Of a stretch of 64,000 bases of DNA, positions 1-47,911 are shown piece after piece. Made by a program: the position numbers and the translations under genes. A model generated the notes under the pieces. That model was not told where the DNA came from and made no database searches. It saw only the letters and a list, made by a program, of their open reading frames with translations. The stretch's first letter is position 1. Every line of letters begins with the position of its first letter. Origin of the DNA: Candidatus Hydrothermarchaeota archaeon (GTDB taxonomy: Archaea; CAYFZR01); contig JBHIEG010000001.1 in the NCBI GenBank assembly GCA_046760505.1, forward strand, positions 52,023 through 116,022. Direction: 5' to 3'.

Positions 1-1068
1 AAAGTTCCCCCTCTTTTCATGATTCATGGAAATCACGATGGAACAAGAGATCCAGATAGCCCGGCAAAATACTCAAGTATTCTCGAACTATTTGAGATTT
101 TTCAAATTGCTAACTACACAGATCTTTATGTAACAGAAGAAATTACCGAACCCAAGATTTTTTTGATGGAAGATAAGGATGTAAAATTAGGCATTCAGGG
201 ATTTGGATACAGACATCCCAATGTGGCCAGGAATCTGTTGAAAGAATTTACTCCAATGGATGATGTGGACTATAATTTACTTCTGATGCATCAAACCATA
301 GAGGGATTGCAAACACCTACAACGCCTATTCAAGGACTACTTCAAGAAGAAATCGTCGAACTAGGATTTGACGTAATAATAGATGGACACATCCATAGGC
401 CACTAGATCCTGTTCCTAAGATTCGAGATACCTTAATAATCCTCCCAGGTAGCACGGAAAGAATTGATTCAGGAGAAATAGGTGAGAAGAAGGGTTATTT
501 CATTTTAGAATTTGGTAAAAATGGAATAAACACGATATTCAAAGAAATAGATCTAGACTCTGAAGTTCGAAGACTACATAGGATAAGGGTGAATATAGCA
601 GATTTTGTTGGTAGAGAGATACTTGATGAAGCCATAAAAGAGGTCAAATCAAAGTTAAAAGATCCATTAAATGCGTATGTAGTGATAGATTTACTGGGAA
701 AAGTGAGAGAATCTGTTTCTCCAGAAATAAGATCCAGCATTGCTAATGCAGTAGAAAAGATGGGTGTTGCTCATGTGGTAATACGGGATAAGACTAAGGC
801 GAAAACTTTGCCTTTGCTTAGTGTTGGGGAGTCTAAAACAATAGAGATAGGGGAAGACTTATTCAAAAAACTATTAGAAGAAAAACCACTTAAAACCAAG
901 GATAAAAAGCCAATAAGAGATGAAGAAATCATAAAAAAACTAGCAGGCTTAACTTACAAAGTCTTTGAAGCCTCCAAAAGCGATAATGAGGAAGAAACGA
1001 AGAAACTCTTTACTGAAGATCTCAGAAAAATCGTGAAGGACCTAAAAGAAAGGGAGGAGCATTCATGA
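1..1068 (+). CDS. mre11: Mre11/SbcD-family DNA repair nuclease (5' partial; frame open to window start)
   Basis: Phosphoesterase motifs GNHD, LMHQ, DGHIH, PGSTER. Frame is open from base 1 (KVPPLF-MIHGNHD), so motifs I-II lie upstream. ATGA overlap with the Rad50 gene. Confidence 0.88.
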   Translation, partial: KVPPLFMIHGNHDGTRDPDSPAKYSSILELFEIFQIANYTDLYVTEEITEPKIFLMEDKDVKLGIQGFGYRHPNVARNLLKEFTPMDDVDYNLLLMHQTIEGLQTPTTPIQGLLQEEIVELGFDVIIDGHIHRPLDPVPKIRDTLIILPGSTERIDSGEIGEKKGYFILEFGKNGINTIFKEIDLDSEVRRLHRIRVNIADFVGREILDEAIKEVKSKLKDPLNAYVVIDLLGKVRESVSPEIRSSIANAVEKMGVAHVVIRDKTKAKTLPLLSVGESKTIEIGEDLFKKLLEEKPLKTKDKKPIRDEEIIKKLAGLTYKVFEASKSDNEEETKKLFTEDLRKIVKDLKEREEHS

Positions 1069-3299
1069 TCATCAAGGAGGTAAACGCAATAAATATAAAG
1101 ACTCATACTGCAAACACTCCTCCTATAAAATTTCAAAGAGGGTTAAACGTTCTTTTAGGAAGAGTTGGCTCTGGGAAGAGTACCATCCTCGATTCCATCA
1201 TGTTTGGATTGTACGGATGGAGGGGGATTAAATTTAAGAATCTAATTACGAAGGGTAAGTCTGATTTTAGAATAGAAATAATATTTGAGCATGAGGGAAA
1301 AGATTACAGGGTTGTTAGAGGGGAAGAAGACTATCTCGAGCTTTTGGATAACGGTTATCGGATTGCAAGCGGACACAGGAAAGTTACCGAGGAAATAGAG
1401 AGAATCGTTGGTATTTCCAGAGATCAGTTCCAAAATCTTTTTTACGCGACTCAGGGGGAGATAGCAAGACTGATAACAGGCTCTCCTGAAGAGAGACAGA
1501 AGATAATAGACCGTTTGTTGGGATTGGAGTCTTTGAGAGAAGCATATGATTGGTTAAAAGAGCCAGCGAAAGCCAATCAGGATGATTTAAATAAATTAAA
1601 GGAGGAAATTGCCAGACTTGATGGAAGGCTCCAAGGTAGATCGCTTGAACAACTAGAAGAGGAGAAAAGAGAAAAAGAGAAATTGGTAGAAGATTTTGCC
1701 TCCCAAATCGAGGAACTGGAGGATAAAATAAAGAAAATAGAAGAATCTTTATCGAGTATCAAAGAGAAGGTAAAAGAATGCGAAGAGTTTAAAGAGGAAA
1801 TAGAAAAACTAAACAAGAAAATAGAGCAAATAAACATAGAAATTAACGTTTTAAGAGAAGAACTATCAAGATTGGATCCTGCTAGCATTAAGAAAGAAAT
1901 TGAACACCTAAAAAATGATTTGGAAAAACTAGAAGGTAAGATAGAAAGGTTAAGCGATGAGGAAAAATTTTTGATCCGTGAGAGAGATCACAGTATAGTG
2001 GTTCTTGAGGGTTCTTTTTCCCAAATAAAAGAAGAACTAGATACCGAAATTAAAAATATTCGGGAAGAATATGAATATATGAAGGGTCAAATGGATGAAA
2101 AGAGAGGTGAGGCAAAAAAAATAGTAAAGCAGAAAAAAGAGCTAGAAAAATTAGAGGCTGGTCCAGATGCTCTTTGTCCTTTGTGCAGAAGGCCCCTCAC
2201 CGAAGAACACAAGAAAAAAGTCATAGAAGAACTAGAACTAGAATTGGACAAACTAAAAGCAAAGATCAATGTTTTTGAGGAAGAAGTTAAGGAAAAAAGC
2301 AATATTTTAAAAGAAAAAGAGAATACAAAGAAAGAAAGGGAAGAATCGATTAGGAAAGAGATTAAGGAGAAATACGATGAATATGAAGCTAAACTAAATT
2401 CTGTGAGAGAGGATTTGAGAAAACTCAGAGATCTGTATTCCAGCAAAAAGACGAGAAAAGATGAGCTAGAAAAAAAGTTAGAAGAGACTACAGCACGCAA
2501 ACAAGAATATGTTAGTAAAATAAAGGAATATGAACTTGAAAAAAATCATATCTCACTAGAACTTAATGGAGTGATAAGAGATTCAATAAGTAGACTTGGA
2601 ATTGAAGGACTCAGTCCCATCGAAGAGTTGACTCAACTAAAACAGAATTTTGAAGAGGAAAGATCTAAACTAACCTCCGATAAAGAAAACTTGAGTGTAC
2701 TCAAAACAAAAATAGAAAGCGATCTCAAGGTATTGAACAGGGAGATCGAAGAACTAAAGAGTTTAATCGAGGATGCAAAGGCAAAAGAAGAGAAGAAAAA
2801 AGATTTAGATGTAGTTGAAGAAGCCAACCATTTAGCAGGGGATATAAGAGAAAAATTTAAGGAAGCAAGAGAACTCATCCGTGTAGAAAGCCTTAAAGTC
2901 CTTCAAGCACAACTTGAAGACCTTTTCTTGGGAGACAACAGACTATACGTTCATGGAGATTTTCATAAGGTAAATCTCAAAGAAAACTATGAAATAACTG
3001 TAGAGAATCCCTACGGGGAGATTTCCATAGATACTTTATCAGGAGGTCAAAAAGCCATTGTCAGTCTAGCATTTAGATTTGCGGTCGCGAAAGCTCTTGC
3101 AAAAAACTTCGAGACTTGGCTGGTGGACGAGCCTACAGAAAGTCTGGGAGACGAAGACGTAGACCAATTGGCTAACGTTTTGGCTTATATACAAGAGATT
3201 CCTCAGATCATAGTGGCTACACATCATCCTGAACTGGCAAGAAACGCTCACGCAATAAGAGTTTATATCGAAAATGGCGAGACTAAGATCGAGTATTGA
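1065..3299 (+). CDS. rad50: Rad50/SbcC-family SMC-like ATPase
   Basis: Walker A GRVGSGKS, Q-loop YATQGEI, long coiled coil with central zinc hook CPLC, signature LSGGQ, Walker B LVDEPT, H-loop ATHH. Confidence 0.9.
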   Translation: MIIKEVNAINIKTHTANTPPIKFQRGLNVLLGRVGSGKSTILDSIMFGLYGWRGIKFKNLITKGKSDFRIEIIFEHEGKDYRVVRGEEDYLELLDNGYRIASGHRKVTEEIERIVGISRDQFQNLFYATQGEIARLITGSPEERQKIIDRLLGLESLREAYDWLKEPAKANQDDLNKLKEEIARLDGRLQGRSLEQLEEEKREKEKLVEDFASQIEELEDKIKKIEESLSSIKEKVKECEEFKEEIEKLNKKIEQINIEINVLREELSRLDPASIKKEIEHLKNDLEKLEGKIERLSDEEKFLIRERDHSIVVLEGSFSQIKEELDTEIKNIREEYEYMKGQMDEKRGEAKKIVKQKKELEKLEAGPDALCPLCRRPLTEEHKKKVIEELELELDKLKAKINVFEEEVKEKSNILKEKENTKKEREESIRKEIKEKYDEYEAKLNSVREDLRKLRDLYSSKKTRKDELEKKLEETTARKQEYVSKIKEYELEKNHISLELNGVIRDSISRLGIEGLSPIEELTQLKQNFEEERSKLTSDKENLSVLKTKIESDLKVLNREIEELKSLIEDAKAKEEKKKDLDVVEEANHLAGDIREKFKEARELIRVESLKVLQAQLEDLFLGDNRLYVHGDFHKVNLKENYEITVENPYGEISIDTLSGGQKAIVSLAFRFAVAKALAKNFETWLVDEPTESLGDEDVDQLANVLAYIQEIPQIIVATHHPELARNAHAIRVYIENGETKIEY

Positions 3300-6200
3300 A
3301 TTTGATTTTTTTAGATACGTCTCTAGGTTTAATAACTTCCCCCCTTTGCTTCGATACTGTTTTCACACTTATGTAGGTCCCCAGTCTCTTAGCCTCATTT
3401 ATGTATCCCAAAAGCGCGTTTTTGGCGCCTATTTGATCTCCTACTTTTTCCAGGGTAGTGGAGTCCCCTATAACAATTAATTTCTTCTTGCACCTAGACA
3501 TTGCCACATTCAATCTTCTTAAATCTCCTAAGAAACCTATTTCACCCTCGTCGTTACTACGAACAAGAGAGAGAAGCACTATATCGTGTTCTCTTCCTTG
3601 GTAAGAATCTATGGTTCCTGATCTTATTTCCCTCTTTAAGTAGGTTTTTATCCAGTTATTCTGCCTTTGATACGGTGTTAAGAGCAATATATCATCGGTT
3701 GCATGTCTTAATAAATCTATGATAGAGGCTGCGATTACAGCCTCTAGAGGGTTGGATTTGCTATAATCACCTGATTCTCGACAAGAACCTAAAGTATCGA
3801 TGAAAATTAAGGTATTTTTAGGATCAGAACATAATTTCAAGATTTTTGGTGTTATTTCAGCCTTTAAATCCATTTCTTTCAGGATTTCGTTGTACTTGCT
3901 TGCTATTCCTTCAAGATCTATGTTCAAAATCTCTTTGTGATGGTGGTTTTCTTTTGGTCCTGGATCGTTTTTTAACTTCGAATCGTAAAAATATTTTGAG
4001 AGATATTCTCCAACTTCATGGGGACATCTGTACTGAACGTCTAACATTCTGTAGGGGTGGTATGATTTTTTCTTTTCCAAGTGTTCAATTACCTGATCAA
4101 ACCAAGATCTCATAAGCCTCTTAGCATCTTTATCCTCCAAAACAGGCTCCAATTGTTTATGATCTCCAATTAAAATCCACTTTTTAGCAAAAATTCCAGG
4201 TATTATGGCTGTTGGTAAAATACATTGGGTGGCTTCATCTAAGAAGAGAACATCAAAAGGTTGTTGAGAGAAGTGAGGATAATCTTTTTCATGAGGGAAC
4301 TCTGCAAAGGCAGAGTAAAATGCGTCGCTGAAGGCTGATACAATTGTGACTCCCACAAGATCTGCTTCTTTCAGTTTTTTTATTTCTTCCAGATTTTCTT
4401 CTAAGGTGTCTATTATTTCTACTCCTTTTAGGTGTCTTACTGCTTCCGGTTTTCCAACCCTGACTATTCTAGCACTGATTTTTTTCTCATTCATCAGTTC
4501 AACTATCTTCTCTAGCGCATTATCAACCGCATTGTTGGTAAAAGAGGCAATTAAGACTTTTTTACCTTTTTTTAAAAGTTCTAGTGAGGCATAGGCGATT
4601 ACAGTTGTTTTTCCTGAGCCAAAAGGACCATGAACGACTCCGTACTCTGATTCCATCATAAATCCCACTGCCTGCTCTTGACTTGGATTTAAACCAATTT
4701 TTGTATCTTTTTTTATGGAAATAGCCTTTGAAGGGTTTTTCAATAACTCTTTAAACCTCAAAAAGTGATTTCTTGTTTCTTCGTTGATCGAAAACAATTC
4801 TGGTGCCTCGAGGATGGAGAGCGCAAACTTAGATCTCCTTGAAAGATCTATGAATGAGCCATCGATTCTAAGATTTTTCCTGTTGGTAATAACAGGAGAT
4901 GGCTTTTCTAGGAAGCGAACTCTAATCGAATAGGGTTTTATATCCTCGATTAGAGCACTGCACCAACCATGACGTGGATTGAATCCTGAAATACGAATGT
5001 AAGCTCCATTGAAGAAATAAGGTGTTCTTTTCGTGGGTTTGTCTGATTTTAAAATACCTAGATCATGATGTACTGACTCTAAATATAAATTCGAGAGGGT
5101 AGTACCCTGAAATTCTAGCTCAGCTAAGGGTAATTCGCCCAGATTAATCAACCTTTTGAGCTGAGTCTCTTGTTCGAAATCGATTCCGTTGCGCATTTTA
5201 GAAAATTCTTTTTCAAGAGTAAGACGGTTCATGTTGGAGCAAATAACCTCTTTCTGACATTCTTCGCATTTTTTGCTCTCTGGTTCATAAACGTTTATCG
5301 GAGGATTGTTAGCGGTTGACCAGTAAATGTATTCATCCCTGTTCCACAATAATTTCTTTAAGAAAATCTCTTTTTCTTCTTCTTTTACGGTATATTTCTC
5401 TATAAGGCTTCCATCTCTCAAATCAAATGCAAACAAATGAGCTTGGGACTCAGTTAAACCTATAGCATCTTCCATCAAAACTCTGTAGGCGTTCGCCTGT
5501 GTACTTCCCCTGAATACAGCTGGGCTTAGAAAATCCTTGTAATTTTCAACATTTTCCGTAAACTTCTGTTCTACGACTCTCCCTGTTTTTTTCTTACCTT
5601 TGTACTTTACGGCTATTGCATCCGCCCTTCCTATGAACCCAAATCTTGGGCTCATCAACGAATACTCTGACCAGGTATAGGATTCCGGATCTCCTTCTGA
5701 TATCCAGCAAAAAAGATCGTATGCTGTATCTGCATAACTATTTAATCGTGTTAGTGCATTTTTTATTAATTCTTTCGTTTTGATCCTTTGAGAATGCCTT
5801 TCTATCTCTGCATTGGCTTTCTTTAATCCTACATCTATGGCTTCTTCGATATTTTTTCCAGATTTAAATTCTTCCCATGTAGCATTCCAGAATTCTTGAA
5901 AAATCATGTGGTTAATTCTACCAAGAATCTGCTTTTCTGTAGGCTTAAATTGGATTCCAAATCTTTGGGTTAAAAATATTTCCATTGGACAAAAAAACAG
6001 AGCAGAATCAACGTTAACCAATCTGTCTAGGGCAATGGTAATCGGAGGACCGTTTCTCCAGAATCCATATCTGTCTTTGCGAGGTATTTGCCATTTGAAC
6101 CATTCGTTAGGCTCTGGGGTCCTATGAAACAATAATCTCGTTCCGATGCGTAGTATCTTTCGATCATAGAATTCAATGAGACTCGGATAGGTTCCATCAT

Positions 6201-6336
6201 AATCATCTGGTTGTGAAAAAAATACGGGAATTTTATCCTTGTTCTCAAGTTCAAGAAGAACTCTGATGTAAGGGTTTCCGTTTCTATCTACTTCTCTAAC
6301 GGCTTGTAGGATAGTTCCTATGATGCCAAAAACCAT
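3283..6336 (-). CDS. Dna2-like Fe-S PD-(D/E)XK nuclease fused to SF1B (UPF1-like) helicase
   Basis: Nuclease: FFCPME, GRINH, SEYSLMSPRFGFIGRADA, VEQK, QANAY, CEECQKEVIC. Helicase: HGPFGSGKTT, SFTNNAVDN, DEATQ, GDHKQLEP, QYR, TPYQRQ, TIDSYQGRE, NVAMSRCK. Confidence 0.85.
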   Translation of the reverse strand: MVFGIIGTILQAVREVDRNGNPYIRVLLELENKDKIPVFFSQPDDYDGTYPSLIEFYDRKILRIGTRLLFHRTPEPNEWFKWQIPRKDRYGFWRNGPPITIALDRLVNVDSALFFCPMEIFLTQRFGIQFKPTEKQILGRINHMIFQEFWNATWEEFKSGKNIEEAIDVGLKKANAEIERHSQRIKTKELIKNALTRLNSYADTAYDLFCWISEGDPESYTWSEYSLMSPRFGFIGRADAIAVKYKGKKKTGRVVEQKFTENVENYKDFLSPAVFRGSTQANAYRVLMEDAIGLTESQAHLFAFDLRDGSLIEKYTVKEEEKEIFLKKLLWNRDEYIYWSTANNPPINVYEPESKKCEECQKEVICSNMNRLTLEKEFSKMRNGIDFEQETQLKRLINLGELPLAELEFQGTTLSNLYLESVHHDLGILKSDKPTKRTPYFFNGAYIRISGFNPRHGWCSALIEDIKPYSIRVRFLEKPSPVITNRKNLRIDGSFIDLSRRSKFALSILEAPELFSINEETRNHFLRFKELLKNPSKAISIKKDTKIGLNPSQEQAVGFMMESEYGVVHGPFGSGKTTVIAYASLELLKKGKKVLIASFTNNAVDNALEKIVELMNEKKISARIVRVGKPEAVRHLKGVEIIDTLEENLEEIKKLKEADLVGVTIVSAFSDAFYSAFAEFPHEKDYPHFSQQPFDVLFLDEATQCILPTAIIPGIFAKKWILIGDHKQLEPVLEDKDAKRLMRSWFDQVIEHLEKKKSYHPYRMLDVQYRCPHEVGEYLSKYFYDSKLKNDPGPKENHHHKEILNIDLEGIASKYNEILKEMDLKAEITPKILKLCSDPKNTLIFIDTLGSCRESGDYSKSNPLEAVIAASIIDLLRHATDDILLLTPYQRQNNWIKTYLKREIRSGTIDSYQGREHDIVLLSLVRSNDEGEIGFLGDLRRLNVAMSRCKKKLIVIGDSTTLEKVGDQIGAKNALLGYINEAKRLGTYISVKTVSKQRGEVIKPRDVSKKIKFNTRS

Positions 6337-6453: not shown

Positions 6454-6714
6454 TTATTTTATAATTTTTCCGGTTCTCGGATCGATCCAGAAATAATGAT
6501 ATTTAATTGGTTCTCTTGGCGGTGGTAGGTCGGAATTCCATTTATCAGATTTTGCCTTGAAAACGCGATCTAGGGTGAAAAATTCGTGTTCCCATATTCT
6601 TAACTTACTTCGCTCCTCCTCGCTTAAACAAAAGACCCTTATTTTCTTACCCTTGGGTAACCTTGATAAGTCGATATCGTGTTTATACCCGCACTCAGGG
6701 CATTCTATAATCAT
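6454..6714 (-). CDS. small hypothetical protein with N-terminal CxxCG zinc-ribbon knuckle
   Basis: IIECPECGYKH; good SD (GAAGGTGA) upstream. Confidence 0.65.
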   Translation of the reverse strand: MIIECPECGYKHDIDLSRLPKGKKIRVFCLSEEERSKLRIWEHEFFTLDRVFKAKSDKWNSDLPPPREPIKYHYFWIDPRTGKIIK

Positions 6715-6746
6715 GGTATCACCTTCTCTTAGATTTTAAAAACGCT

Positions 6747-7019
6747 TTAGTAAATCAGAGCGTATTTGTGAGTTAAAAACGTCGAAATTATCGTTATCAT
6801 GGTGGTTAGGGCAAAGGATACATGAATCCTTCTGATTATCCTTTCATTTGATATCAGGAGAGAAAAACCTGAAATCGAAAGCACGGAAAATCCAACCAGA
6901 CTAAGATAGGCAAAGAGATGATGCCAGTCTACTGGCCTAGGCTTTTGATAGTAGAGTGCCCAGATGAAGAGAATACTTATTAAATAAGTTAGAACAGTAA
7001 TTGCAAGGGTTTTCTTCAT
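6747..7019 (-). CDS. small membrane protein (about 3 TM)
   Basis: Three hydrophobic segments; 4 nt downstream of the nitroreductase gene. Confidence 0.6.
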   Translation of the reverse strand: MKKTLAITVLTYLISILFIWALYYQKPRPVDWHHLFAYLSLVGFSVLSISGFSLLISNERIIRRIHVSFALTTMITIISTFLTHKYALIY

Positions 7020-7023
7020 ATCA

Positions 7024-7701
7024 TCACCTCTTATGCCCTACAGGCATTATATAGATGGGTTTATGATCTGATGGAAGTTTGAGGACTTCTTGGACTTCAT
7101 CATCGTAAAAAGCTCCAACTACCGTTGTTCCTAAGTTTAAAGAAACGCATTGAAGGTATATATTCTGGGCAACATGTCCTGCTTCCATGTAAACATATCT
7201 TTCTCCTCTCTCACCATATTTCCTCTTCGTCCTTTCGAATACAGCTGTGATTATAATGTCGACGGGGGCCTCTCTAACCCATTCCTGATCTAAAGCTGCT
7301 TTTGAAAGGTTTTTTCTAACATCTCCAGCGTATTTTTGCTCCAACGAATGAGTCCAAGGATCGTAGTGATATATTCCTTCTTTCGTTACTACGTATATTT
7401 CCATAGGGTAAAGAGCTCCAGCCGAGGGTGCAGTTCTGAATCCTTTTGGTCTGTACGTTATTCCTTGAGCCGCCCAGAGAATCTGTGAAATTTCCTCTAA
7501 ACTGAGATTCTTCTCACTGTATTCTCTTATGGATCTTCTCTCAAGGATTGCTTCCTCTACAGATTTATTGCTTGTATAACGAGGCTCAGGAAGCATGATT
7601 ATCTTGTCTACTTCTTTTAATTCTCTCTTTTCAGTTATGCAGAGGCTTGTGGGCAGAATTAAGATGATTGAAAGGCATATTGCATTTATATTTCGATACA
7701 T
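7024..7701 (-). CDS. SagB/ThcOx-family nitroreductase-fold protein with hydrophobic N-terminal leader
   Basis: RRSIREYS, RTAPSAGALYP, EAGHVAQN, GAFYDDEV motifs. Confidence 0.85.
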   Translation of the reverse strand: MYRNINAICLSIILILPTSLCITEKRELKEVDKIIMLPEPRYTSNKSVEEAILERRSIREYSEKNLSLEEISQILWAAQGITYRPKGFRTAPSAGALYPMEIYVVTKEGIYHYDPWTHSLEQKYAGDVRKNLSKAALDQEWVREAPVDIIITAVFERTKRKYGERGERYVYMEAGHVAQNIYLQCVSLNLGTTVVGAFYDDEVQEVLKLPSDHKPIYIMPVGHKR

Positions 7702-7773
7702 TTTCCAATCTAATGAAGTTATTCGGTTTATCGATAAAAGTGTTTCTTTGTTAGGAAATTTGAATCTTTAAGA

Positions 7774-7958
7774 TCACTCCTTGGAAAAGATCTCTACTGC
7801 TTTTTCAACGGAAGACACTCTCTCAGTACATTCGTATCATGAACCCTCTCGAAGTATTCTTTCAGCCCTTCAGGCGTCTTCAGGTTCAGGCCAGTAAGTT
7901 GCCTACAGTTCACGTAACCAAACCTATCCTTGAATGCAGTTAAAAATTCATCGACCAT
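7774..7958 (-). pseudogene. frameshifted C-terminal remnant of a C-GCAxxG-C-C family redox protein
   Basis: Manual translation MVDEFLTAFKDRFGYVNCRQLTGLNLKTPEGLKEYFERVHD, then a frameshift to ECTERVSSVEKAVEIFSKE-stop. N-terminal CGA motif region is absent. Confidence 0.6.
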
Positions 7959-8091
7959 ATCGGTTGAGGATCTTCTTCTATGCTTGTTCTCCCACTCCTA
8001 CTTTTGCACTAAACACACAACCAGAAATCTAAACGGTCTTTGCTTTAATTTGTTCACAGGACCGATCTAGAGAAAAAGTATATTGAGAGAT

Positions 8092-8325
8092 CTATTTTAC
8101 TTTCTTGGAGAATATTGTTCTCGTCTCAACGATTCCTTTGATTTGTAAGATCTTATCTGTTACTAGGTCTATAACCTTCTCGGGATCATCGATACCTATC
8201 TTCGCAAGAACGTCATATTGGCCTGTGATAAGATAAACTTCCAAAATCTGATCAATTTCTGCCATTTCTTCGGCAATGGTCTTTTCTTTTCCGGCCTCGG
8301 CTCTAACAACTATAAAAGCACTCAT
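8092..8325 (-). CDS. stand-alone Lrp/AsnC ligand-binding (RAM) domain protein
   Basis: EVYLITGQYDVLAKI...IKGIVETRT; no HTH. Confidence 0.85.
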   Translation of the reverse strand: MSAFIVVRAEAGKEKTIAEEMAEIDQILEVYLITGQYDVLAKIGIDDPEKVIDLVTDKILQIKGIVETRTIFSKKVK

Positions 8326-8467
8326 CCTTTCACCCTATTATAATTGGAGAAGAAATTACTTAAGATTTATTCATGTATCCCATCAATCGTGTATATTATC
8401 TCGTAGGTGTGTATCAAATAATGAGTAACCCAAAGTTAGAAATGGTAGTATTACTTAAGATAAAACC

Positions 8468-9190
8468 ATGTCCGAAAAAATGGAAACTTCTCGGAAGAAT
8501 AAGTTTGCCAGATTTGACAAGGATTTTCTCAGGCAAATAGGGATGTTTAGCAAGCCGAGAAAATATAAGGCTCCAATCTCCAATGAAGAGTTAATGGAAG
8601 ATTTAGAGAGATACAGAGAATTTGCTTTTAAGCTTGGATGTGAGGATGCGAAAATAATTCCAGGCTCGATGGTTAATGTGGATGAGAGGCTGAGATTAAA
8701 GTGCAGAATTTCCGCATGCCATCACTACAATAACTGCATAAACTGTCCGCCCTATTCCCCAACAGCCGAGGAGATGGCGAGAATCATTCCAAAATACAAG
8801 TATGCTTTGTTCATAAAAAGGGACGTTGATCCCAAAGAAGATTTCATAGATCCAAAGGAAGAAGATGACATAGCAAGACATTACAGAAAAAATATGGAGA
8901 TAGTAGGTCTCCTAGAGGCTCAAGCATTTAGTGATGGTTACTACTTCGCAATGGGCTTTGCAGGAGGTTCCTGCCAGCATGCACTCTGCATGATGCAGCC
9001 CTGCAATGTTTTAAAGGGGGAAAGATGCAGGTTTATATTAAAAGCCCGACCTGCAATGGAGGCAGTGGGAATAGATGTCATAGACATTGCAATAAAGGTT
9101 GGATGGGAACTCTATCCGGTTCGAGCCAGACCAATTCCACCAGAAGAATTTCCATGTGCTAAAACTTTCGGTATTATCTTCGTTCACTGA
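8468..9190 (+). CDS. DUF2284-like Cys-rich predicted metal-binding protein
   Basis: RLKC...C..Y..C..CPP, GGSC..LC...C......CRF...ARPAMEAVGIDV pattern. Confidence 0.75.
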   Translation: MSEKMETSRKNKFARFDKDFLRQIGMFSKPRKYKAPISNEELMEDLERYREFAFKLGCEDAKIIPGSMVNVDERLRLKCRISACHHYNNCINCPPYSPTAEEMARIIPKYKYALFIKRDVDPKEDFIDPKEEDDIARHYRKNMEIVGLLEAQAFSDGYYFAMGFAGGSCQHALCMMQPCNVLKGERCRFILKARPAMEAVGIDVIDIAIKVGWELYPVRARPIPPEEFPCAKTFGIIFVH

Positions 9191-9273: not shown

Positions 9274-10518
9274 ATGAGAGTGTACGTTGAGAGCTACGGC
9301 TGTACCATGAACAAGGGAGATGCGGATTTAATCAGAGGTATTCTATCAATGAATGGTTTCTCCTTGGTAGATTCCCTGAGCGAGGCAGATCTTGTTGTAA
9401 TAAATACATGTACGGTAAAAGGACCCACAGAAAGAAAGATGATAAAAAGAATTAAAGAAATCAAAGAAACGAACAAAAAACTTGTTGTAAGCGGTTGCAT
9501 GAGCATGGCTCAGCCCGAACTTGTAAAGAGGATTCATCCCAAGGCTATTCTTTTAGGACCTAAAAGCGTGGACAAGATCATACCTGCAATAGAAAGGGAT
9601 TCCGACTTTTTGGATGAAAAAACTCCAAACAAAACCGATTTACCAACAGCAGAGAATTCCAAAATAATACAGATCTCAGAGGGTTGCTTGGGGAACTGCT
9701 CATATTGTATAGTCAAAATGGCGAGAGGTCAATTAAAAAGCTTTCCTTTGAGGAACATAATTAAGAGGCTAAGAGAATTCGTTGAAAAGGGAAGAAAGGA
9801 GATACTTCTAACCGCTTTGGACACCGCTGCCTACGGTCAGGACTTGGGTCTGAATTTGGCAGATCTTTTGTACGAGATAGATAAAATTGATGGTGAATTT
9901 TGGGTTAGAGTAGGAATGATGAATCCATCTCATGCCTTAGATTTTACAGACGAATTAGTAAACGCTTTTAAATCAGAAAAAATTTATAAATTCCTGCATT
10001 TACCGGTTCAGAGCGGGGACGATGATATCTTGGAGAAGATGAACAGGAATTATACCGTCGATGATTTTAAGTATATCGTAAATAGATTTAGGAAGGAGAT
10101 ACCCTATTTAACTCTTTCAACAGATGTGATTGTGGGATTTCCTACTGAAACAGAAGAGCAATTTCAAAATACATATAAACTAATTGAGAAAATAGAGCCG
10201 GACGTGCTTAACATAACAAGATTTTCCCCTAGACCTTTTACTGAGGCAAGCAGGATGAAACAAATACCTGACTGGATAAAAAAGAACAGATCTAGGAAAA
10301 TAAATGAGTTGAGATCCCGAATCTCATTAGAGAAGAATAAAAGATGGATAGGAAAAAGATTAAAGGTTCTTATATCCGAAAAAGGTAAAAAAGATGATTT
10401 TATCGCTAGAACCTTCTCATACAAGCCTGTTATTGTCTCGAAGGATGGGAAGATGCTCAACGAGTTCATAGAGGTAGATATCACCGGTGCCAAGGAAAAT
10501 TACCTGTTAGGCTCTTAA
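9274..10518 (+). CDS. mtaB: tRNA t6A37 methylthiotransferase (archaeal MtaB/MiaB-like radical SAM)
   Basis: ESYGCTMN, INTCTVK, VSGCM, GCLGNCSYC, HLPVQSG, C-terminal TRAM-like domain. ATG 9274 preferred over TTG 9253. Confidence 0.88.
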   Translation: MRVYVESYGCTMNKGDADLIRGILSMNGFSLVDSLSEADLVVINTCTVKGPTERKMIKRIKEIKETNKKLVVSGCMSMAQPELVKRIHPKAILLGPKSVDKIIPAIERDSDFLDEKTPNKTDLPTAENSKIIQISEGCLGNCSYCIVKMARGQLKSFPLRNIIKRLREFVEKGRKEILLTALDTAAYGQDLGLNLADLLYEIDKIDGEFWVRVGMMNPSHALDFTDELVNAFKSEKIYKFLHLPVQSGDDDILEKMNRNYTVDDFKYIVNRFRKEIPYLTLSTDVIVGFPTETEEQFQNTYKLIEKIEPDVLNITRFSPRPFTEASRMKQIPDWIKKNRSRKINELRSRISLEKNKRWIGKRLKVLISEKGKKDDFIARTFSYKPVIVSKDGKMLNEFIEVDITGAKENYLLGS

Positions 10519-10533
10519 ATAAATCAAATTAAA

Positions 10534-10851
10534 TCAACATCCCGTGGGCTCTATAGCCTGCTCTTCAGACCAGAGCATTATCAGATTTTTGTTTTCTAGC
10601 CTCTTCAGCACTCCATATAACAACTCGGGATCTAAATCTGTTCTTATCGAAAGTTCCAGAAGGGATATCGCTTCTTCGTTAGAACTGGGGATATGGGTGA
10701 ATACCATACCTTCAAGCCCATCTAATTTAACCTTCTTCTTAATAAATGAAGCAATCTTTAACTTTCTGGGTATTAATACGACTTTAACAGGATCGCCTTC
10801 CCTTTCTGTCCCTTCAAACTTTTCAACACAGTATATTTTTCCTATGTCCAT
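10534..10851 (-). CDS. hypothetical protein, possible C-terminal winged helix
   Basis: ISLLELS...LYGVLKRLENKNLI resembles a wHTH; overlaps the upstream gene end. Confidence 0.5.
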   Translation of the reverse strand: MDIGKIYCVEKFEGTEREGDPVKVVLIPRKLKIASFIKKKVKLDGLEGMVFTHIPSSNEEAISLLELSIRTDLDPELLYGVLKRLENKNLIMLWSEEQAIEPTGC

Positions 10852-11384
10852 TCAATATCACTTGAATCTAAAATTTTTCCGTTCAAGACTTCTTCTATTT
10901 GTTTAAGAGCCCACTCATGGTCTTCTTCGTTCAACCCTGCTACGCAATCTCTCGGTACTGTTATCCTGTAACCTAGATTGACTGCATCACTCGAAGTATA
11001 GAGCACGCATATATTCGTAACGATTCCGGTGATTATTAATTCCTCCACCTTAAATTCTCTGAGAATTGAATCTAAATCAGTGCCAAAAAATCCACTATAC
11101 TTCCTTTTACGAACGATATAATCATTTTTTTCAGGTTTTAGTTCATCTATAACTTCTGATCCTTCTGTGCCGCTCACACAGTGTCTGGGCCATATATCGA
11201 ATTCAGGATCATCTTCTCTATGACTATCACATATATATATTACCATAGTTTTTGTTTTTCTAGCCTTTTCAATCAAATTTTTTATTGGATTAATGATATT
11301 TCTAGATTCTGGAACTTCCAGTGGTGCATTTTCTTTAACAAAATCTTTTAACATGTCTATGATTAGCAATGCCTTCATAACCAT
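10842..11384 (-). CDS. isochorismatase-family cysteine hydrolase (nicotinamidase-like)
   Basis: LLIIDMLKDF, DSH, WPRHC, KRKYSGF, TNICV. Confidence 0.9.
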   Translation of the reverse strand: MVMKALLIIDMLKDFVKENAPLEVPESRNIINPIKNLIEKARKTKTMVIYICDSHREDDPEFDIWPRHCVSGTEGSEVIDELKPEKNDYIVRKRKYSGFFGTDLDSILREFKVEELIITGIVTNICVLYTSSDAVNLGYRITVPRDCVAGLNEEDHEWALKQIEEVLNGKILDSSDIEWT

Positions 11385-11432
11385 CCCAAATTTAATTAAA
11401 CAAATGTGCTTAAGTATTTGTCGCGCCCAGAA

Positions 11433-11732
11433 TTAGGTGAATTTAAAGAGCAAAAATTCTAGTAGTAGAGCAGAGAGTAAAATGATCCAGAATACAGGGT
11501 GGGTGAATATGAGGTTAAATCTCATCTTCCATGTAACGTGAGGAGTTAGATACTTGTTTAGTTCGAGTTCAACCTCTCTTATGAGATCGAGATTATCGAA
11601 TTGAGGGTTGTTCTTGATGAGTTCTAGGTTTCTGCTAATTTCCATTCTTCTTCGAACTGGAATATTTCTCTGAACTTTCCTGAACTTATTCTCCAGATCC
11701 GTCACTACGTCAATACCAGCTTCCATAGCCAT
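11433..11732 (-). CDS. hypothetical protein with C-terminal TM anchor
   Basis: Helical soluble part plus HPVFWIILLSALLLEFLLF. Confidence 0.55.
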   Translation of the reverse strand: MAMEAGIDVVTDLENKFRKVQRNIPVRRRMEISRNLELIKNNPQFDNLDLIREVELELNKYLTPHVTWKMRFNLIFTHPVFWIILLSALLLEFLLFKFT

Positions 11733-11862
11733 CTTCTCTAATCTAAATCGTTGTGATTTAGATGATAAACAACTTTTTAATTTGTAAAACCTATTTAATA
11801 TACTTTTTCGTTTTGAAATTTTGGATATGATTTTTGTATAAGTTTTTAGTAACTAAAAAATA

Positions 11863-12420
11863 ATGGAAGTTCATTTGTTGCGGATCGGTGAAGTTGAGGA
11901 TAAAATATTGAGCGAGATAAAGAATGATGTAGAAGAGGCTTTCAAGGGAATTGTTACGATAAAACTATCGGATACTTTCCTATCAATTCCTGAAGAATCA
12001 TGGAACAAAAGTAGGAGACAATACAAGTCAGATATCATCTTAGAAAAAATAGACAAAATGGGAAGAAATATGGGGCTCATTTTGGTGGGAATCACTCCAG
12101 AAGACCTTTACGTTTCAGGACTGAACTTTGTTTTCGGTCAGGCAAAGATACACGGAAATGCCTGTATAGTTTCCTTACACAGACTGAGACCTGAATTCTA
12201 TGGATCTATTGTGAGCGGAGAAGTGTTAAAAAAGAGATTGAAAAAAGAGATAATCCATGAGTTAGGACACGTCCTTGGATTGACTCACTGCTTTGATAAA
12301 AGTTGTGTAATGTCGTTTTCTAATAGCATAAAGGATGTGGATTACAAAAGAGAGGAATTGTGTCATAATTGCTGGAGGAAGTTGAATGAAGATAAGATCC
12401 ATGTCCCATTCAGACTTTGA
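11863..12420 (+). CDS. amzA: archaemetzincin Zn metalloprotease
   Basis: NFVFGQA, HELGHVLGLTHC...CVMSFS...C..C. Confidence 0.92.
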   Translation: MEVHLLRIGEVEDKILSEIKNDVEEAFKGIVTIKLSDTFLSIPEESWNKSRRQYKSDIILEKIDKMGRNMGLILVGITPEDLYVSGLNFVFGQAKIHGNACIVSLHRLRPEFYGSIVSGEVLKKRLKKEIIHELGHVLGLTHCFDKSCVMSFSNSIKDVDYKREELCHNCWRKLNEDKIHVPFRL

Positions 12421-12829
12421 CAGAGTGATAGAAATTGAAAGGGCATCATTTAAAGATCCGTGGTCACATATCAGTTTTCTGGATTTATTTCACTTCAGCC
12501 CAAAGGGATTCATTGTAGTAGAGGTCCAAGGCGAAATTGTTGGATACGCAATATATGTTCTAGAAACCAATGAAATAGGACACCTCCTGTCAATCGCAGT
12601 AGATCCTAACTGGAGAAGGAAAAAAATAGGTACCTCTCTAATGAACTATATTATAGAGGACCTAAGAAACAAGGGAGTAAAATATCTTAAGCTAGAGGTC
12701 AGGGAAGGAAATCTTCCTGCAATAAAGTTGTACAAATCACTCGGGTTTTTGGAAATTGAAATCATACGCTATTATTATAGTGATGGTGAAAATGCGATAC
12801 TGATGGTTAAGGATATAAGCAGAGAGTAA
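12386..12829 (+). CDS. rimI: RimI/Ard1-like N-terminal GNAT acetyltransferase
   Basis: IERASFKDPW, HLLSIAVDP.WRRKKIG, LEVREGN..AIKLY, YYSDGENA. Confidence 0.85.
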   Translation: MKIRSMSHSDFDRVIEIERASFKDPWSHISFLDLFHFSPKGFIVVEVQGEIVGYAIYVLETNEIGHLLSIAVDPNWRRKKIGTSLMNYIIEDLRNKGVKYLKLEVREGNLPAIKLYKSLGFLEIEIIRYYYSDGENAILMVKDISRE

Positions 12830-12905
12830 GTGCAATCAAAGGTTAAAAAACCAACTTTTAAGGTACTTTTTAATCACCATTCTGAACATCCTCTTAATCG
12901 TAAGA

Positions 12906-12961
12906 TTTATATATGACATCTAACGCAAGATTATTTAGTGGGTCTAACACTCATGAGGTGA
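12906..12961 (+). promoter_or_regulatory. hsp20-cdc48 promoter: TATA box, CTAAC/TTAG half-sites, SD
   Basis: TTTATATA near 12906-12913; CTAAC 12920-12924, TTAG 12935-12938, CTAAC 12944-12948; SD GAGGTGA 12955-12961. Confidence 0.45.
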
Positions 12962-12966
12962 TGAAA

Positions 12967-15704
<2,738 letters not shown>

Positions 15705-36231: not shown

Positions 36232-37275
36232 TTAAAAGTTGTTTTTTCCGAGTATTTCTCTTAGCCTTTTGTCATTAAATCTTACGCTCATAGTTGGAGT
36301 GCTCAATTTTAACCCTGATACAACGATTGTAACCCTAACCTTGTCCCCGAATTCTGGATCCAATTGAGCCCCCCAGATAATATGTGCACCCTTAGAGAGT
36401 TTCTTCGAAACTTCATTGACAATTCTCCCTGTTTCCTCCATTTTTAGGTCATATCCTCCTACTATGTTTATTAATGCTCCTTTGGCGCCGTTAATATCTA
36501 TTTCCAACAGAGGACTATTTAAAGCTTCAGAGGCTGCGATGATTGCTCTGTTTGGACCTTCCCCCTCGCCTATTCCTATCATTCCGATATTTTTTCCTCC
36601 AATAATCGTTTTGAAATCCGCGAAGTCAAGATTAACGAGGCCTGGCTTGGTTATTGATTCAACGATGCCCTTCAATGTGGTTACGAGAATTTCATCAGCG
36701 AGTTTATAGGCAGAAGCAGATGTAGAACTTGAGGTTAACTCAAGCAATTTCTGGTTGGGTATAACTATTACAGAATCAACGATATTTTTCAATCTATTTA
36801 ATCCTATATGCGCGTTTCTCATCCTCGAAGGACCTTCAGATTTAAGTGGTAGCGTTATCATTAATATAGTTAGTGCACCGGAATTTTTGGTTATTTCCGC
36901 TATTACTGGCGTAGATCCCGTTCCTGTCCCTCCCCCCAACCCGCATGTTATGAATGCCAAATCAACTCCCTTTACCGTATCTCTTATGATTGGTGCATCT
37001 TCTCTTGCTGCAGAGTCTCCGAGTTCGAGAATACTGCCTGTTCCTAAACCCCTAGTAATGGACTTACCGATCAGTATTTTATGGTGGGCTTTAGCATTTA
37101 AGAGAGCCTGCGCATCGGTGTTTATGACAATGGTCTCCGCTCCCTCTATCCCGGCCTCCATTAATCTCGAAACAACCTTACAGCCCGCTCCTCCTATGCC
37201 AATGATTTTTATATTCGGTCTTGATTCAATGATTATTCTCTTCAATTCGTCATCAGTCTTATCCTCTTTGGACAT
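36232..37275 (-). CDS. ftsZ: FtsZ-family tubulin-like GTPase
   Basis: INTDAQAL, GLGGGTGTG, T7 loop VNLDFAD, IIWGA. Confidence 0.9.
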   Translation of the reverse strand: MSKEDKTDDELKRIIIESRPNIKIIGIGGAGCKVVSRLMEAGIEGAETIVINTDAQALLNAKAHHKILIGKSITRGLGTGSILELGDSAAREDAPIIRDTVKGVDLAFITCGLGGGTGTGSTPVIAEITKNSGALTILMITLPLKSEGPSRMRNAHIGLNRLKNIVDSVIVIPNQKLLELTSSSTSASAYKLADEILVTTLKGIVESITKPGLVNLDFADFKTIIGGKNIGMIGIGEGEGPNRAIIAASEALNSPLLEIDINGAKGALINIVGGYDLKMEETGRIVNEVSKKLSKGAHIIWGAQLDPEFGDKVRVTIVVSGLKLSTPTMSVRFNDKRLREILGKNNF

Positions 37276-37367
37276 AGAAGACCCTCTGGCAATCTATTAA
37301 AAATTAGAATTAATCTTATTTTAGTTTAGTGATCAAAAAGAAAAACTGAGGAGTTGAGAAAGTTAAC

Positions 37368-37805
37368 TCAGTATCGTCTTCTCTCTCCTCTACTAAAATC
37401 TTTCCTAAAATAGCCTCTTCTACGATAACCCGTCTCGTACGTCTTGTTAGAAATATTTTTTTCGGTATTTATTTCTCCTAACTCTATATCCTCTCTTTTT
37501 TCCATCGAACCATACTTGCCTATGTTGAGTCTCATGTTCCCCCTGATTAAAGATACGTACCCATTATCTATGGCTATTATGTCTCCTTCGTTTACCTCGT
37601 CAATCTGGTTTCCCCATAGGGTCATGACGACAGTAGCGGTTTCATCGCCAACGAGAACCTCTGCAAGAGTCTTTGTTTCACCAGATCTTGTTGTTATGGT
37701 CCTCTTTTCTGGTTCTTCTAAGACCTTCACTATCAAATTAGCTCTCCTACTGGTAGGAGAGAGGTCTTCAACCTTAATCATCTCTTGGTCTCTCACCATC
37801 ACCAC
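37368..37805 (-). CDS. ssb: single OB-fold ssDNA-binding protein
   Basis: AEVLVGDETA.V.MTLW, NGYVSL.RG.MRLNIGKYG; Arg/Gly-rich tail. Confidence 0.85.
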   Translation of the reverse strand: MVMVRDQEMIKVEDLSPTSRRANLIVKVLEEPEKRTITTRSGETKTLAEVLVGDETATVVMTLWGNQIDEVNEGDIIAIDNGYVSLIRGNMRLNIGKYGSMEKREDIELGEINTEKNISNKTYETGYRRRGYFRKDFSRGERRRY

Positions 37806-38944: not shown

Positions 38945-41131
38945 ATGAAGCAGATAGAGTTAAGAGTCGCAGAGTCAATGCCCCAAGATGTTGGTAAAGG
39001 TATAGTTAGGATAGATGGAAAAAGTCTAGCGGAATTAGGACTTGTTGCAGGAGATATCGTCGAGATAAGAGGAGAAAAAATAGGAGTGGCAATAGTAAAC
39101 CAAGGGTATCCTATGGATGAAGGTCTGGGCATTGTGAGGATGGATGGAGTGGTAAGATACAATGCAGGAGCCAACATAGGAGGGAAGGTGAAGGTAAGGA
39201 AAGCACAAGTAAAAAACGCCCGAAGAATAAGGTTAAGCCCCATTCAACCCGTTAGATTTAGATCAGATTTCCAAGAATACGTCAGAAGAAGAATTATAAA
39301 AAAACCGCTGATCAGAGGAAATAGGATAGATGTTCCTGTTTTTAATACCGCTTTATCTCTAATAGTAACGAGTACAGACCCGAGCGGTTCGGTATTAGTA
39401 ACCGAGGAAACCCAGATTAATATCAGCGATCGTCCGATAAAGGACATACTAGATATTCCAGCCGTAACATATGAGGACATAGGTGGGCTGAAAGAGGAAA
39501 TCCAGAAAGTTAGAGAGATGATCGAGCTTCCACTAAGGCACCCTCAGGTATTCGAGAAACTGGGTATCAAACCCCCAAAGGGCGTTCTTCTCCATGGACC
39601 GCCGGGAACCGGAAAAACATTACTTGCAAGAGCAGTAGCCCACGAAAGTAACGCCCATATTATAATGTTAAATGCTCCTGAAATTATGGGAAAATATTAT
39701 GGAGAAAGCGAAGAAAGGCTCAGAGAAATATTCAAACAAGGGCATGAGAATGCTCCAAGTATAATATTCATAGATGAAATAGATGCAATAGCGCCCAAAA
39801 GGGAAGAGGTTACTGGAGAAGTGGAGAAGAGAGTAGTAGCACAATTACTTTCTTTAATGGACGGTTTAAAAGAGAGAGAGAAAGTAATAGTTGTTGCCGC
39901 TACAAATAGGCCAAACGCTCTCGATCCTGCGCTCAGAAGGCCTGGAAGATTTGATAGAGAGATAGAGATAGGTATTCCAGATAGAGATGCAAGATTTGAG
40001 ATACTGCAGATCCATACAAGGAACATGCCTTTAGAAGACGTGGATCTGGAAGAGTTAGCAAATTCAACCCATGGTTTTGTGGGTGCAGACATAGCCGCTT
40101 TATGCAGAGAGGCTGCAATGAGTGCCTTGAGAAAAGTTTTGCCAGAAATAGATCTTGAAGCCCATGAAATCTCACCAGATACATTGGAAAAATTGGTAGT
40201 GCGTAGAGAAGACTTCAAAGCAGCCTTAAAAGACGTTGGCCCCTCTGCACTCAGAGAAGTCTACGTTGAAATTCCGAATGTAAGGTGGTCAGATATTGGG
40301 GGGTTGGAAGAAGTCAAGAAGGAGTTAAAAAAGGCGATAGAATGGCCTCTCAAGTATCCAGATGAGTTTGAAGAACTAGGTATCAAACCGCCTCATGGTA
40401 TATTACTCTACGGTCCTCCAGGAACCGGCAAGACCATGCTTGCAAAGGCTATAGCCACTGAGGCTCAGGCCAACTTCATAAGTATAAAAGGGCCCGAACT
40501 ACTAAGTAAATGGGTTGGAGAAAGTGAAAAGGCAGTTAGAGAGGTATTCAAAAAAGCCAGACAAACTGCCCCCTGTATAATCTTCTTTGACGAGGTAGAC
40601 TCGATAGTTCCTAGAAGAGGGACTGGTATAGGAGATTCAAGAGTTACTGAAAGAATAATAAGCCAGATACTAACGGAGTTAGATGGTATTGAAGAACTAA
40701 CAGATGTAGTGGTAATTGCCGCGACGAATAGACCTGACATAATCGATCCTGCCCTGTTCAGACCAGGAAGATTTGATAAAATAATTTACGTACCAGAACC
40801 TGATCAGAGAGCAAGATTAGAAATATTCAGGGTGCATACAAAGAATATGCCTCTGGGAGATGACGTGGATATTGAGTGGTTAGCAGGCGTTACCGAAGGA
40901 TACACCGGAGCAGACATAGCTGCTCTTTGTCAAGAGGCAGCTATGATAGCGCTTGAAGAAATCATGGGAAAAGACGTTAAAAGGATTGAGATGAGGCACT
41001 TTGATGAGGCACTGAAATCAGTAAAACCATCTTTGTCAAAAGAAGTCATATTTCAATACGAGAAATTTACAAAGGAAAGAGAGAAGAGAGGCACGATATT
41101 GGACGAAGATTTCAGGGTTTCTTACTTGTAA
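38945..41131 (+). CDS. cdc48: CDC48/VAT AAA+ ATPase, second paralogue
   Basis: Two AAA modules (GPPGTGKT twice, RPGRFD twice). Confidence 0.96.
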
Positions 41132-43358: not shown

Positions 43359-43505
43359 GATAAAATAAAACCATTATATAACTCTGTTATAATGAAAAAC
43401 CTTTAAAACAGCTAGAAGTAACAATACATCGTCAATTGATTTGTTGATGAACTTCTCAAAACTGTATAGAGAAAATATATATTAAATACCCGCTCATTTT
43501 TAAGC

Positions 43506-45125: not shown

Positions 45126-45194
45126 AGTTTCCTAATTGCTCTCAAATAAAAATATATAAAATATTTTTGTAAAAAGAGAGTTTTGGCGTATCAA

Positions 45195-45602: not shown

Positions 45603-45604
45603 TC

Positions 45605-47856: not shown

Positions 47857-47911
47857 ATACTTTTATGTCATAACCTCAGTTTTATGTTATAAACTCTATT
47901 TGTAACATAAG

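Follow-up and report, generated by a model that had tools for sequence, protein, structure and literature searches.

A 64,000-nucleotide stretch of the genome of a Candidatus Hydrothermarchaeota archaeon (contig JBHIEG010000001.1; G000:C1:52023-116022 in our labelling, hereafter the window) opens with an mre11-rad50 gene pair whose 3' end overlaps that of a convergent gene for a Dna2-like nuclease-helicase of 1017 amino acids (aa). We consider it somewhat probable that these genes represent two chromosomal DNA-end-processing units that are neighbours in one genus-level lineage only, and that they constitute neither a replacement of HerA-NurA nor a defence island. As an adjacency, the pairing is lineage-specific; as a co-distribution of two rare protein families, it is striking. 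The three-gene observation consists of strong domain matches in long open reading frames (ORFs) and is not due to chance, and by sequence each gene adds a new and divergent member to a known family. In the usual description of archaeal end resection, Mre11-Rad50 works together with HerA-NurA.

An mre11-rad50 pair and a Dna2-like gene overlap at their 3' ends

The assembly comprises 2.17 Mb in 142 contigs at 38% guanine-plus-cytosine (GC) content. Four DNA sequencing runs from a single study contain the stretch and may be where it came from; no RNA run was listed for it. Throughout, G000 denotes the window genome and G001 its congener, f1 the window's family and f33 the second family carrying the proteins described here. 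We refer to the window's Mre11-Rad50 as type B. The locus contains the following features.

1..1068, plus strand: mre11 (type B), last 355 of 445 codons; ORF open at its 5' end, Metallophos match
1065..3299, plus strand: rad50, 744 aa, with a short coiled coil; SMC_N, AAA_23 and Rad50_zn_hook matches
2175..2186, plus strand: zinc hook CPLC, Rad50 residues 371-374; CxxC motif, Pfam Rad50_zn_hook at residues 357-401 (E 7.8e-8)
3283..3299, no strand: rad50 and the Dna2-like gene converge here and share 17 bp at their 3' ends, from ORF coordinates
3283..6336, minus strand: Dna2-like nuclease-helicase gene, 1017 aa; ORF, with mouse Dna2 as top full-length Foldseek matches
3442..4701, minus strand: superfamily 1B (SF1B; Upf1/Dna2-type) helicase core, residues ~546-965; Pfam AAA_11 and AAA_12, PDB profile search
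4702..5109, minus strand: beta-barrel/stalk between nuclease and helicase, residues ~410-545; model strands 412-493 followed by helices, boundaries estimated
5227..6024, minus strand: iron-staple PD-(D/E)XK (Cas4/Dna2-type) nuclease domain, residues ~105-370; invariant motifs and structural matches
6037..6336, minus strand: N-terminal beta-rich domain, residues 1-100, possibly oligonucleotide/oligosaccharide-binding (OB)-like; strands at 5-41 in both models

The whole mre11 encodes 445 aa and starts ~270 bp before the window, at G000:C1:51753, with the N-terminus MIKLAVFSDSHLG read from the upstream contig sequence; the next gene upstream, cofD, is divergently oriented. The sequence ATGA at 1065-1068 is common to the mre11 stop and the rad50 start. 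The translational coupling of the pair and the 17-bp overlap at 3283-3299, both noted in a preliminary description of this DNA, were thus confirmed.

The 1017-aa protein has the architecture of Dna2

Nuclease and helicase are encoded in the same chain. In family alignments of 4, 7 and 10 members (A1, A2 and A4), the nuclease residues D239, E256-x-K258 and Q280-xxx-Y284 are invariant, in A4 in 10/10 sequences, and the same ten sequences share four cysteines (C116 and C357-xx-C360-x5-C366). One cysteine before the core and CxxCx5C after it make up the iron-staple iron-sulfur (Fe-S) signature known from AddB, Cas4 and DNA2 (PMC7430649). All superfamily 1 (SF1) helicase motifs are invariant as well (A1, A2), including the Walker A motif GPFGSGKTT, DEA(T/S)Q, GDHKQL, QYRCPH and YQGR, and the C-terminal SF1B helicase matches Pfam AAA_11 (1.3e-29) and AAA_12 (3.7e-41). 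The Dna2 model itself (PF08696) gave 20.2 bits by hmmscan, against a cut-off of 22.4; in a search of the genome it reached 21.4 bits, or 24.4 with neighbouring in-frame stretches, and 27.8 bits in the congener.

A search of PDB sequences with the family profile found mouse Dna2 first (E 9.3e-58, query residues 524-958 against chain residues 590-1022), followed by IGHMBP2 (8.9e-52) and then Upf1. The full-length AlphaFold model has a predicted local distance difference test score (pLDDT) of 63.5 and a predicted template modelling score (pTM) of 0.39. Its top three Foldseek matches are the mouse Dna2 entries 5EAW, 5EAN and 5EAX (E 6e-38, ~1130-1147 aligned columns), and the helicase-only proteins IGHMBP2 and Upf1 align over ~680 columns. 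A separate model of the N-terminal 545 aa (pLDDT 69.4, pTM 0.71; residues 43-104 with pLDDT < 50) likewise ranks Dna2 at the top: Foldseek gave E 5.6e-15, and VIA-align gave Z 16.0 over 402 aligned residues (1-545 of the model, 27-608 of the Dna2 chain). The alignment to Dna2 from residue 27 onward suggests that the N-terminal domain is possibly OB-like. After Dna2, the nuclease domain is matched structurally by Cas4 (Z 13.4), MGME1 (12.8), AdnAB (11.8) and RecE (11.3), and also by Exo5, and the barrel region by SETX, Upf1 and IGHMBP2 (Z 7-8.6). In the ESM Atlas, the best match is an archaeal cluster in which every member carries Pfam Dna2 (score 0.95). Because motifs, PDB profile, full-length and N-terminal fold and ESM Atlas agree, we file the protein, as judged from sequence and predicted structure, as an archaeal enzyme of Dna2 architecture that belongs to a rare subfamily; the earlier Dna2-like label is borne out by motifs and predicted fold alike.

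That Dna2 comes first in every structure-based and PDB search, and is the sole target spanning nuclease, barrel and helicase, speaks against an RNA-acting helicase of the Upf1/IGHMBP2/Sen1 type with an attached nuclease, unrelated to DNA ends. So do the nearest nuclease-domain matches (Cas4, MGME1, AdnAB, RecE, Exo5 and AddB), which are all DNA-processing enzymes by their PDB entry titles. We consider this RNA role very improbable, even though the best NCBIfam model is an IGHMBP2-family helicase (248 bits, under the cut-off of 348.9) and Upf1, Sen1 and IGHMBP2 come close behind Dna2 in the PDB searches.

With mouse Dna2 (5EAN/5EAW/5EAX), the protein shares a single chain in which a beta domain at the N-terminus is followed by a four-cysteine-stapled PD-(D/E)XK nuclease, a barrel/stalk and an SF1B helicase. 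It differs in its low identity (14-19% in the structural alignments, with template modelling scores of 0.35-0.49), in its PF08696 score under the cut-off and in being archaeal, and the likeness that we report is one of architecture. According to one paper, no archaeal Dna2 orthologue had been identified (PMC3326311); others mention distant Dna2-like proteins (PMC3820547, PMC7430649), and one of them states that there are a few archaeal proteins with DNA2-like architecture (PMC7430649). One relative in kind is Pab0067 of Pyrococcus abyssi, the Dna2-like helicase of Thermococcales, which PMC3820547 presents as distantly homologous to Dna2 and associated with RPA, and as consisting of a RecB-family nuclease domain (1-600) and an SF1 helicase (601-1308). 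Compared by this description, Pab0067 has 1308 aa against 1017 aa for the window protein, and phmmer with the window's N-terminal 545 aa gave three related clusters, none 1308 aa long. Bad of Geobacillus stearothermophilus likewise joins an iron-staple Fe-S nuclease to an SF1 helicase, translocates 5'-3' and recognizes junctions of single- and double-stranded DNA (PMC7430649); unlike the window protein it is bacterial, and in Geobacilli its gene is adjoined by a DNA methyltransferase gene, not by mre11-rad50 (same source).

The N-terminal half is rarely encountered. Among 1.84 billion representatives, HMMER gave four matches to the N-terminal 545 aa: two relatives of full length, P0027 (E 2.4e-80) and P0028 (E 5.1e-17), one congener fragment and one repeat protein that is probably spurious. 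A word-index search with the whole 1017-aa protein returned 22 matches which, besides the protein itself, were relatives of the helicase half only, and the same kind of search with window Mre11 returned itself and the congener only. Searches based on alignment were needed. The only other genomes with this Dna2-like subfamily form a second lineage, deposited as 'Candidatus Hadarchaeota' or 'uncultured Thermococci'. In a sample of 401 archaeal genomes, PF08696 matched 36 genomes, 23 of them above the cut-off; nine further genomes contain PF08696 frames of at least 900 aa, and 4/9 of these show helicase similarity to the 1017-aa protein.

The neighbouring Mre11-Rad50 is intact and divergent

Window Mre11 matches Pfam Metallophos (1.3e-11), and its phosphoesterase motifs I-V (D9-x-H11, G49-D50-L51-F52, G100-N101-H102-D103, H187 and G219-H220-x-H222) are invariant in alignment A5. 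Among PDB sequences it matched Rad32/Mre11 (E 4.8e-10), and it stays below the NCBIfam equivalog cut-offs, with 52.2 bits for Mre11_Halo (cut-off 550) and 51.9 bits for Mre11_Sulfo (cut-off 500). Compared with Mre11 from 17 sampled archaeal loci it scored just 24.5-58.7 bits, and compared with that of one other genome group 212-224 bits. A type-B Mre11 profile matched 12 clusters at 580-773 bits in a collection of 5.8 billion proteins, and the next match had 84 bits. We therefore regard window Mre11, on these sequence comparisons, as a divergent member of its family.

Window Rad50 has the expected split ABC ATPase head (Walker A GRVGSGKS, signature SGGQ, Walker B DEPTE), a coiled coil, a CxxC zinc hook (CPLC at residue 371) and an mre11 neighbour. 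It matches Pfam Rad50_zn_hook with 32.5 bits (cut-off 24.3) in addition to SMC_N and AAA_23, and the NCBIfam Rad50 model PRK03918 with 227 bits, under the cut-off of 700. In a search of the 401 genomes that used a stricter first pass, Rad50 scored best in the second lineage, with two stretches of ~150 bits; 236/401 genomes match at E <= 1e-15, several Rad50s of 750-810 aa score 130-146 bits, and many archaeal Rad50s of this length align end to end at 25-32% identity. Given these matches, we could not set off a discrete type B of Rad50 as cleanly as for Mre11.

HerA-NurA and a second Mre11-Rad50 are encoded on other contigs

The preliminary description had pictured an Mre11-Rad50 without HerA-NurA. 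This stood for the surroundings of the pair: no NurA or DUF87/HerA family was found in the 54 ORFs of at least 90 aa beyond base 9250 (Pfam, E <= 1e-6), in the four ORFs at 6454-9190 or in the ten ORFs within 11.7 kb upstream of mre11. It did not stand for the genome as a whole, where nurA, herA and a second mre11-rad50 are all present, on contigs C2, C15 and C31. Two NurA matches, on C15 and C2, each adjoin a DUF87/HerA gene, and three DUF87/HerA matches lie above the cut-off, two of them beside nurA.

G000:C2 ~64125-66696 (L019 6126-8697), plus strand: nurA-herA pair, NurA and DUF87 matches
G000:C15 ~43326-45888 (L018 5327-7889), minus strand: nurA-herA pair, NurA and DUF87 matches
G000:C2:93438-94073: lone third DUF87 ATPase, 496-aa frame
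G000:C31 ~9816-14266 (L017 5814-10267), minus strand: second mre11 (397 aa) and rad50 (1087 aa, CPVC hook), beside a CBS-domain gene

The best model for the C2 HerA is the double-strand-break-repair HerA (179.8 bits, below its cut-off), and the C15 HerA scores best, if weakly, on anti-phage-associated HerA models, also below their cut-offs. Because two nurA-herA pairs sit on C2 and C15, their absence from the window does not mean that the organism lacks them, and the idea that Dna2 replaces HerA-NurA was rejected.

The Rad50 on C31 has intact ATPase motifs, and the pair is kept in the congener (G001:C78). C31 Mre11 scored 184-310 bits against the Mre11 at 9/17 sampled archaeal loci and is somewhat nearer than window Mre11 to solved Mre11s in the PDB searches; it too lies below its NCBIfam cut-off (72.3 bits against 500). 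By sequence, the C31 genes are the more conventional Mre11-Rad50, and since the window genome keeps them, its type-B pair comes in addition. A partnership of the type-B pair with the Dna2-like enzyme would thus be an additional, unproven one and not a replacement of the usual archaeal repair genes.

PMC13748450 and PMC3326311 describe a herA-mre11-rad50-nurA end-resection operon of Sulfolobus, Pyrococcus and Thermococcus, a four-gene cluster of thermophiles. As in this operon, mre11 and rad50 of the window are adjacent and coupled, and the genome encodes NurA and HerA; unlike there, herA and nurA are missing from the cluster and form two pairs on other contigs.

In the second lineage, weak NurA matches of 19.6 and 26.4 bits (frames of 652 and 634 aa) at G042:C36 ~47806-51163 and G045:C162 ~1233-4578 adjoin weak HerA-like matches (frames of 645 and 642 aa). 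These long frames, which also spoke against a replacement of HerA-NurA by Dna2, may represent a divergent long form of the NurA-HerA pair. PF09376 gave no NurA match in G041, G043 and G044, genomes for which these searches came with no figure for completeness.

Adjacency is confined to the lineage of the window

The congener shows the same arrangement (locus L020) at identities of 82% and 77%, and there too the genes overlap by 17 bp (3236-3252); a metagenome contig (L107) keeps the arrangement at 74-83% identity. The adjacency is therefore found in 3/3 loci of the window's genus-level lineage (G000, G001 and L107), and these loci are close kin, with 74-83% identity. On L107, the Dna2-like gene (138-3193) and rad50 (3183-5545) are each split over several frames and an ambiguous base is present; the breaks could be due to assembly error or decay.

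In the second lineage, the two units were never found side by side. Adjacency was seen in 0/3 full-length genome loci (L046-L048) and in 0/7 metagenome loci (L108-L114), which contain no Mre11/Rad50 in their flanks; the downstream sequence covers 0.5-8.6 kb there, and one gene runs off the end of its contig. The type-B mre11-rad50 of these genomes lies on other contigs than the Dna2-like gene, and a C31-type query found no second Mre11. Instead, an AP_endonuc_2 TIM-barrel gene and an aminotransferase-trm1 block flank the Dna2-like gene in 3/3 annotated loci (L046-L048). The AP_endonuc_2 gene (xylose-isomerase-like TIM barrel) precedes it on the same strand (L046 9158-9919, L047 9086-9910, L048 1026-1778), and an aminotransferase gene and then a convergent trm1 follow it. 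The contig that encodes P0028 (L115) measures only 3.5 kb and is uninformative on adjacency.

Elsewhere in the archaea, long Dna2-type ORFs were examined at nine loci, and no Mre11/Rad50 was found within ~10 kb of them (tblastn, E <= 1e-3; one locus limited to a 5.3-kb contig). A search of open-access papers and preprints found no report of a Dna2-like gene next to mre11-rad50 in an archaeon. The proposed conserved linkage of the helicase-nuclease to mre11/rad50 therefore holds for the window's lineage (3/3 loci) and not for the second lineage (0/10) or other archaea (0/9). Half of what the preliminary description had named beforehand as speaking against its proposal was found, namely linkage that is not conserved outside the window's lineage.

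Type-B Mre11 and the Dna2-like N-terminus share their carrier genomes

We searched the sample of 401 archaeal genomes with profiles of the two proteins. The Dna2-like N-terminal profile matched 6/401 genomes, namely G000, G001 and four of family f33, and the type-B Mre11 profile scored at least 632 bits in the same six, with a next best score of 103 bits. Since both profiles were built from the carrier lineages, the point is that no intermediates occur elsewhere. By phylum, the tallies are two genomes for the window's phylum and five for that of the other group. Identical coordinates and scores suggest that several labels denote the same genome (G046=G042, G068=G045, G090=G041, G112=G043, G018=G044).

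In an RpoA' tree (single gene, quick search, 39 rows, LG+G4), f1 groups with G026 and G002 (Shimodaira-Hasegawa-like approximate likelihood ratio test, SH-aLRT, 96) and f33 with f18 (95), so that f1 and f33 are not sisters; both groups lie inside one weakly resolved 16-row clade. Neither protein family was found, at the thresholds used, in the nearer relatives G026, G002 and G018 (f18). The rpoA' match of the congener (G001:C51:13853-16483) has one in-frame TAA, which may reflect a sequencing error or a genuine break.

These data bear on an alternative that had been raised for the locus, an archaeal Mre11-Rad50-Dna2 resection module. Type-B Mre11-Rad50 and the Dna2-like enzyme would then form a dedicated, co-inherited and possibly horizontally shared two-step end-resection machine, in which Mre11-Rad50 takes care of opening or clipping the end and leaves the long-range 5' degradation to the Dna2-like enzyme, resembling eukaryotic MRX/MRN with Dna2. 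We regard such a machine as possible and rather unlikely. The accompanying claim is that its parts are gained, kept and lost together, are physically adjacent in the window's lineage and work in parallel to the conventional Mre11-Rad50 with HerA-NurA, and we hold this to be doubtful to a similar degree.

Several of our results weigh against two units that are merely neighbours, most of them in favour of the module: the identical distribution in 6/401 genomes, the position of the two carrier families as non-sisters, the lack of both proteins in nearer kin and the adjacency in 3/3 loci of the window's lineage. The middling confidence of both structure models, full-length and N-terminal, also counts against the reading of the locus that we prefer. 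The module further draws on the rarity of both families, with three related N-terminal clusters in 1.84 billion and 12 Mre11 clusters before the drop to 84 bits, and on the conventional C31 pair, beside which the type-B pair is an extra set. The distribution fits joint gain or loss of type-B Mre11 and the Dna2-like enzyme, a pattern that would speak for a functional link. However, because there are only two independent lineages, the co-distribution is without statistical weight, and with a single, quickly built gene tree that places both families in one weakly resolved clade, it is suggestive only. Moreover, the genes are never adjacent in the second lineage, where the type-B pair is the only Mre11 found and hence looks like an ordinary housekeeping pair; rad50 and the Dna2-like gene are convergent and thus not co-transcribed; and Rad50 is less distinctive than Mre11. 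Of the resection module as first proposed, the Dna2-like identity stood up, and the shared distribution found here speaks in its favour, whereas adjacency turned out to be confined to the window's genus-level lineage.

Two DNA-end-processing units would act on different steps

For the preferred reading, that of two chromosomal units which are neighbours in one lineage, the gene structures, motifs, fold similarity, genome inventory and distributions are shown, whereas we infer the activities of the proteins from homology, and a partnership of the Dna2-like enzyme with this particular Mre11-Rad50 would be hypothetical. The first unit, the intact, divergent and translationally coupled type-B Mre11-Rad50, would act as the familiar ATP-driven machine for binding and clipping DNA ends. 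The second, on the opposite strand, would be a single-chain enzyme of the Dna2 family. By homology and analogy with Dna2 and Bad, a 5' single-stranded end would thread through the Fe-S-stapled PD-(D/E)XK nuclease, and the SF1B motor behind it would move 5'->3' and feed DNA to the nuclease, which would cut the 5' strand. In this way the enzyme may trim 5' tails or flaps, be it at breaks and stalled forks or during lagging-strand processing, and Mre11-Rad50 might bind and open or clip ends before this step. A complex prediction for Mre11 (A5) and the N-terminal half of the Dna2-like protein (A4), run without controls, scored 0.01 against a mark of 0.32 and weighs neither way.

At 1017 aa, the archaeal protein encoded at this locus is compact, has the complete Dna2 layout and shows a distribution that mirrors one type of Mre11-Rad50. 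If the pairing is functional, it would provide a simple prokaryotic model for the hand-over from Mre11-Rad50 to Dna2, and one archaeal cell would carry both an 'archaeal' and a 'eukaryotic-style' route of long-range resection. If it is not, these would be ordinary repair genes that are chance neighbours in one genus.

The surrounding genes are housekeeping genes

The neighbours of the locus are housekeeping genes, among them cofD, genes for a nitroreductase, radical-SAM enzymes and Cdc48, glnA, carB and ftsZ. The GC content across the region, 0.364-0.372, agrees with that of the genome (0.38), and a search with its own query found a single copy of the 1017-aa gene in the genome. This setting argues against a defence module, in which the SMC-like ATPase-nuclease pair and the SF1 helicase-nuclease would sense and destroy the ends of invading DNA, as does the stable housekeeping neighbourhood of the second-lineage gene in 3/3 annotated loci. 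The defence reading can point to PADLOC matches of Rad50 to LmuB (113 bits), PbeC and mad3 (90 bits), of which LmuB and PbeC are generic SMC matches, and of the 1017-aa protein to MkoA (251 bits, helicase half only, residues 691-981), and to an NCBIfam match of the latter to a PLuB system helicase-like model (163.7 bits against a cut-off of 999). These matches, however, cover generic ATPase and helicase cores only and lie far under curated cut-offs, and no known defence system in PADLOC/NCBIfam (Lamassu, Mokosh, PLuB or others) gave a full-length signature match with components nearby. No other recognisable defence component was found among the neighbouring ORFs, in the window or upstream, by Pfam annotation, with PADLOC or other defence libraries not applied to these neighbours. 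The accessory anti-virus or anti-plasmid role suggested earlier was not borne out, and we give it almost no credence.

Seven ORFs of the assembly have at least 1000 aa: those for the C31 Rad50, the large subunit of PolD, CarB, IleRS and the Dna2-like protein, one without a family match and one on C22. The C22 ORF probably encodes an SMC, judging from the matches of both Rad50s to NCBIfam SMC models. In this check for thermophily, no reverse gyrase was recognized among the seven, although a split or unassembled gene would escape the search. For the largest ORF of the genome (G000:C2:21936-26333, 1466 aa), NCBIfam gave no match at E <= 1e-20.

Further along the window, a gene for a small Ssb-like OB-fold protein (145 aa) lies just upstream of ftsZ (36235-37805, minus strand), and two Cdc48-type AAA ATPases are encoded at 13491-15701 and 38945-41128. 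At 60384-63700 on the minus strand, a Lhr-type helicase (DEAD, WH_Lhr, DEAD_assoc; 876 aa) is followed immediately by a calcineurin-like phosphoesterase of 230 aa, which by sequence looks like another helicase-plus-nuclease repair pair.

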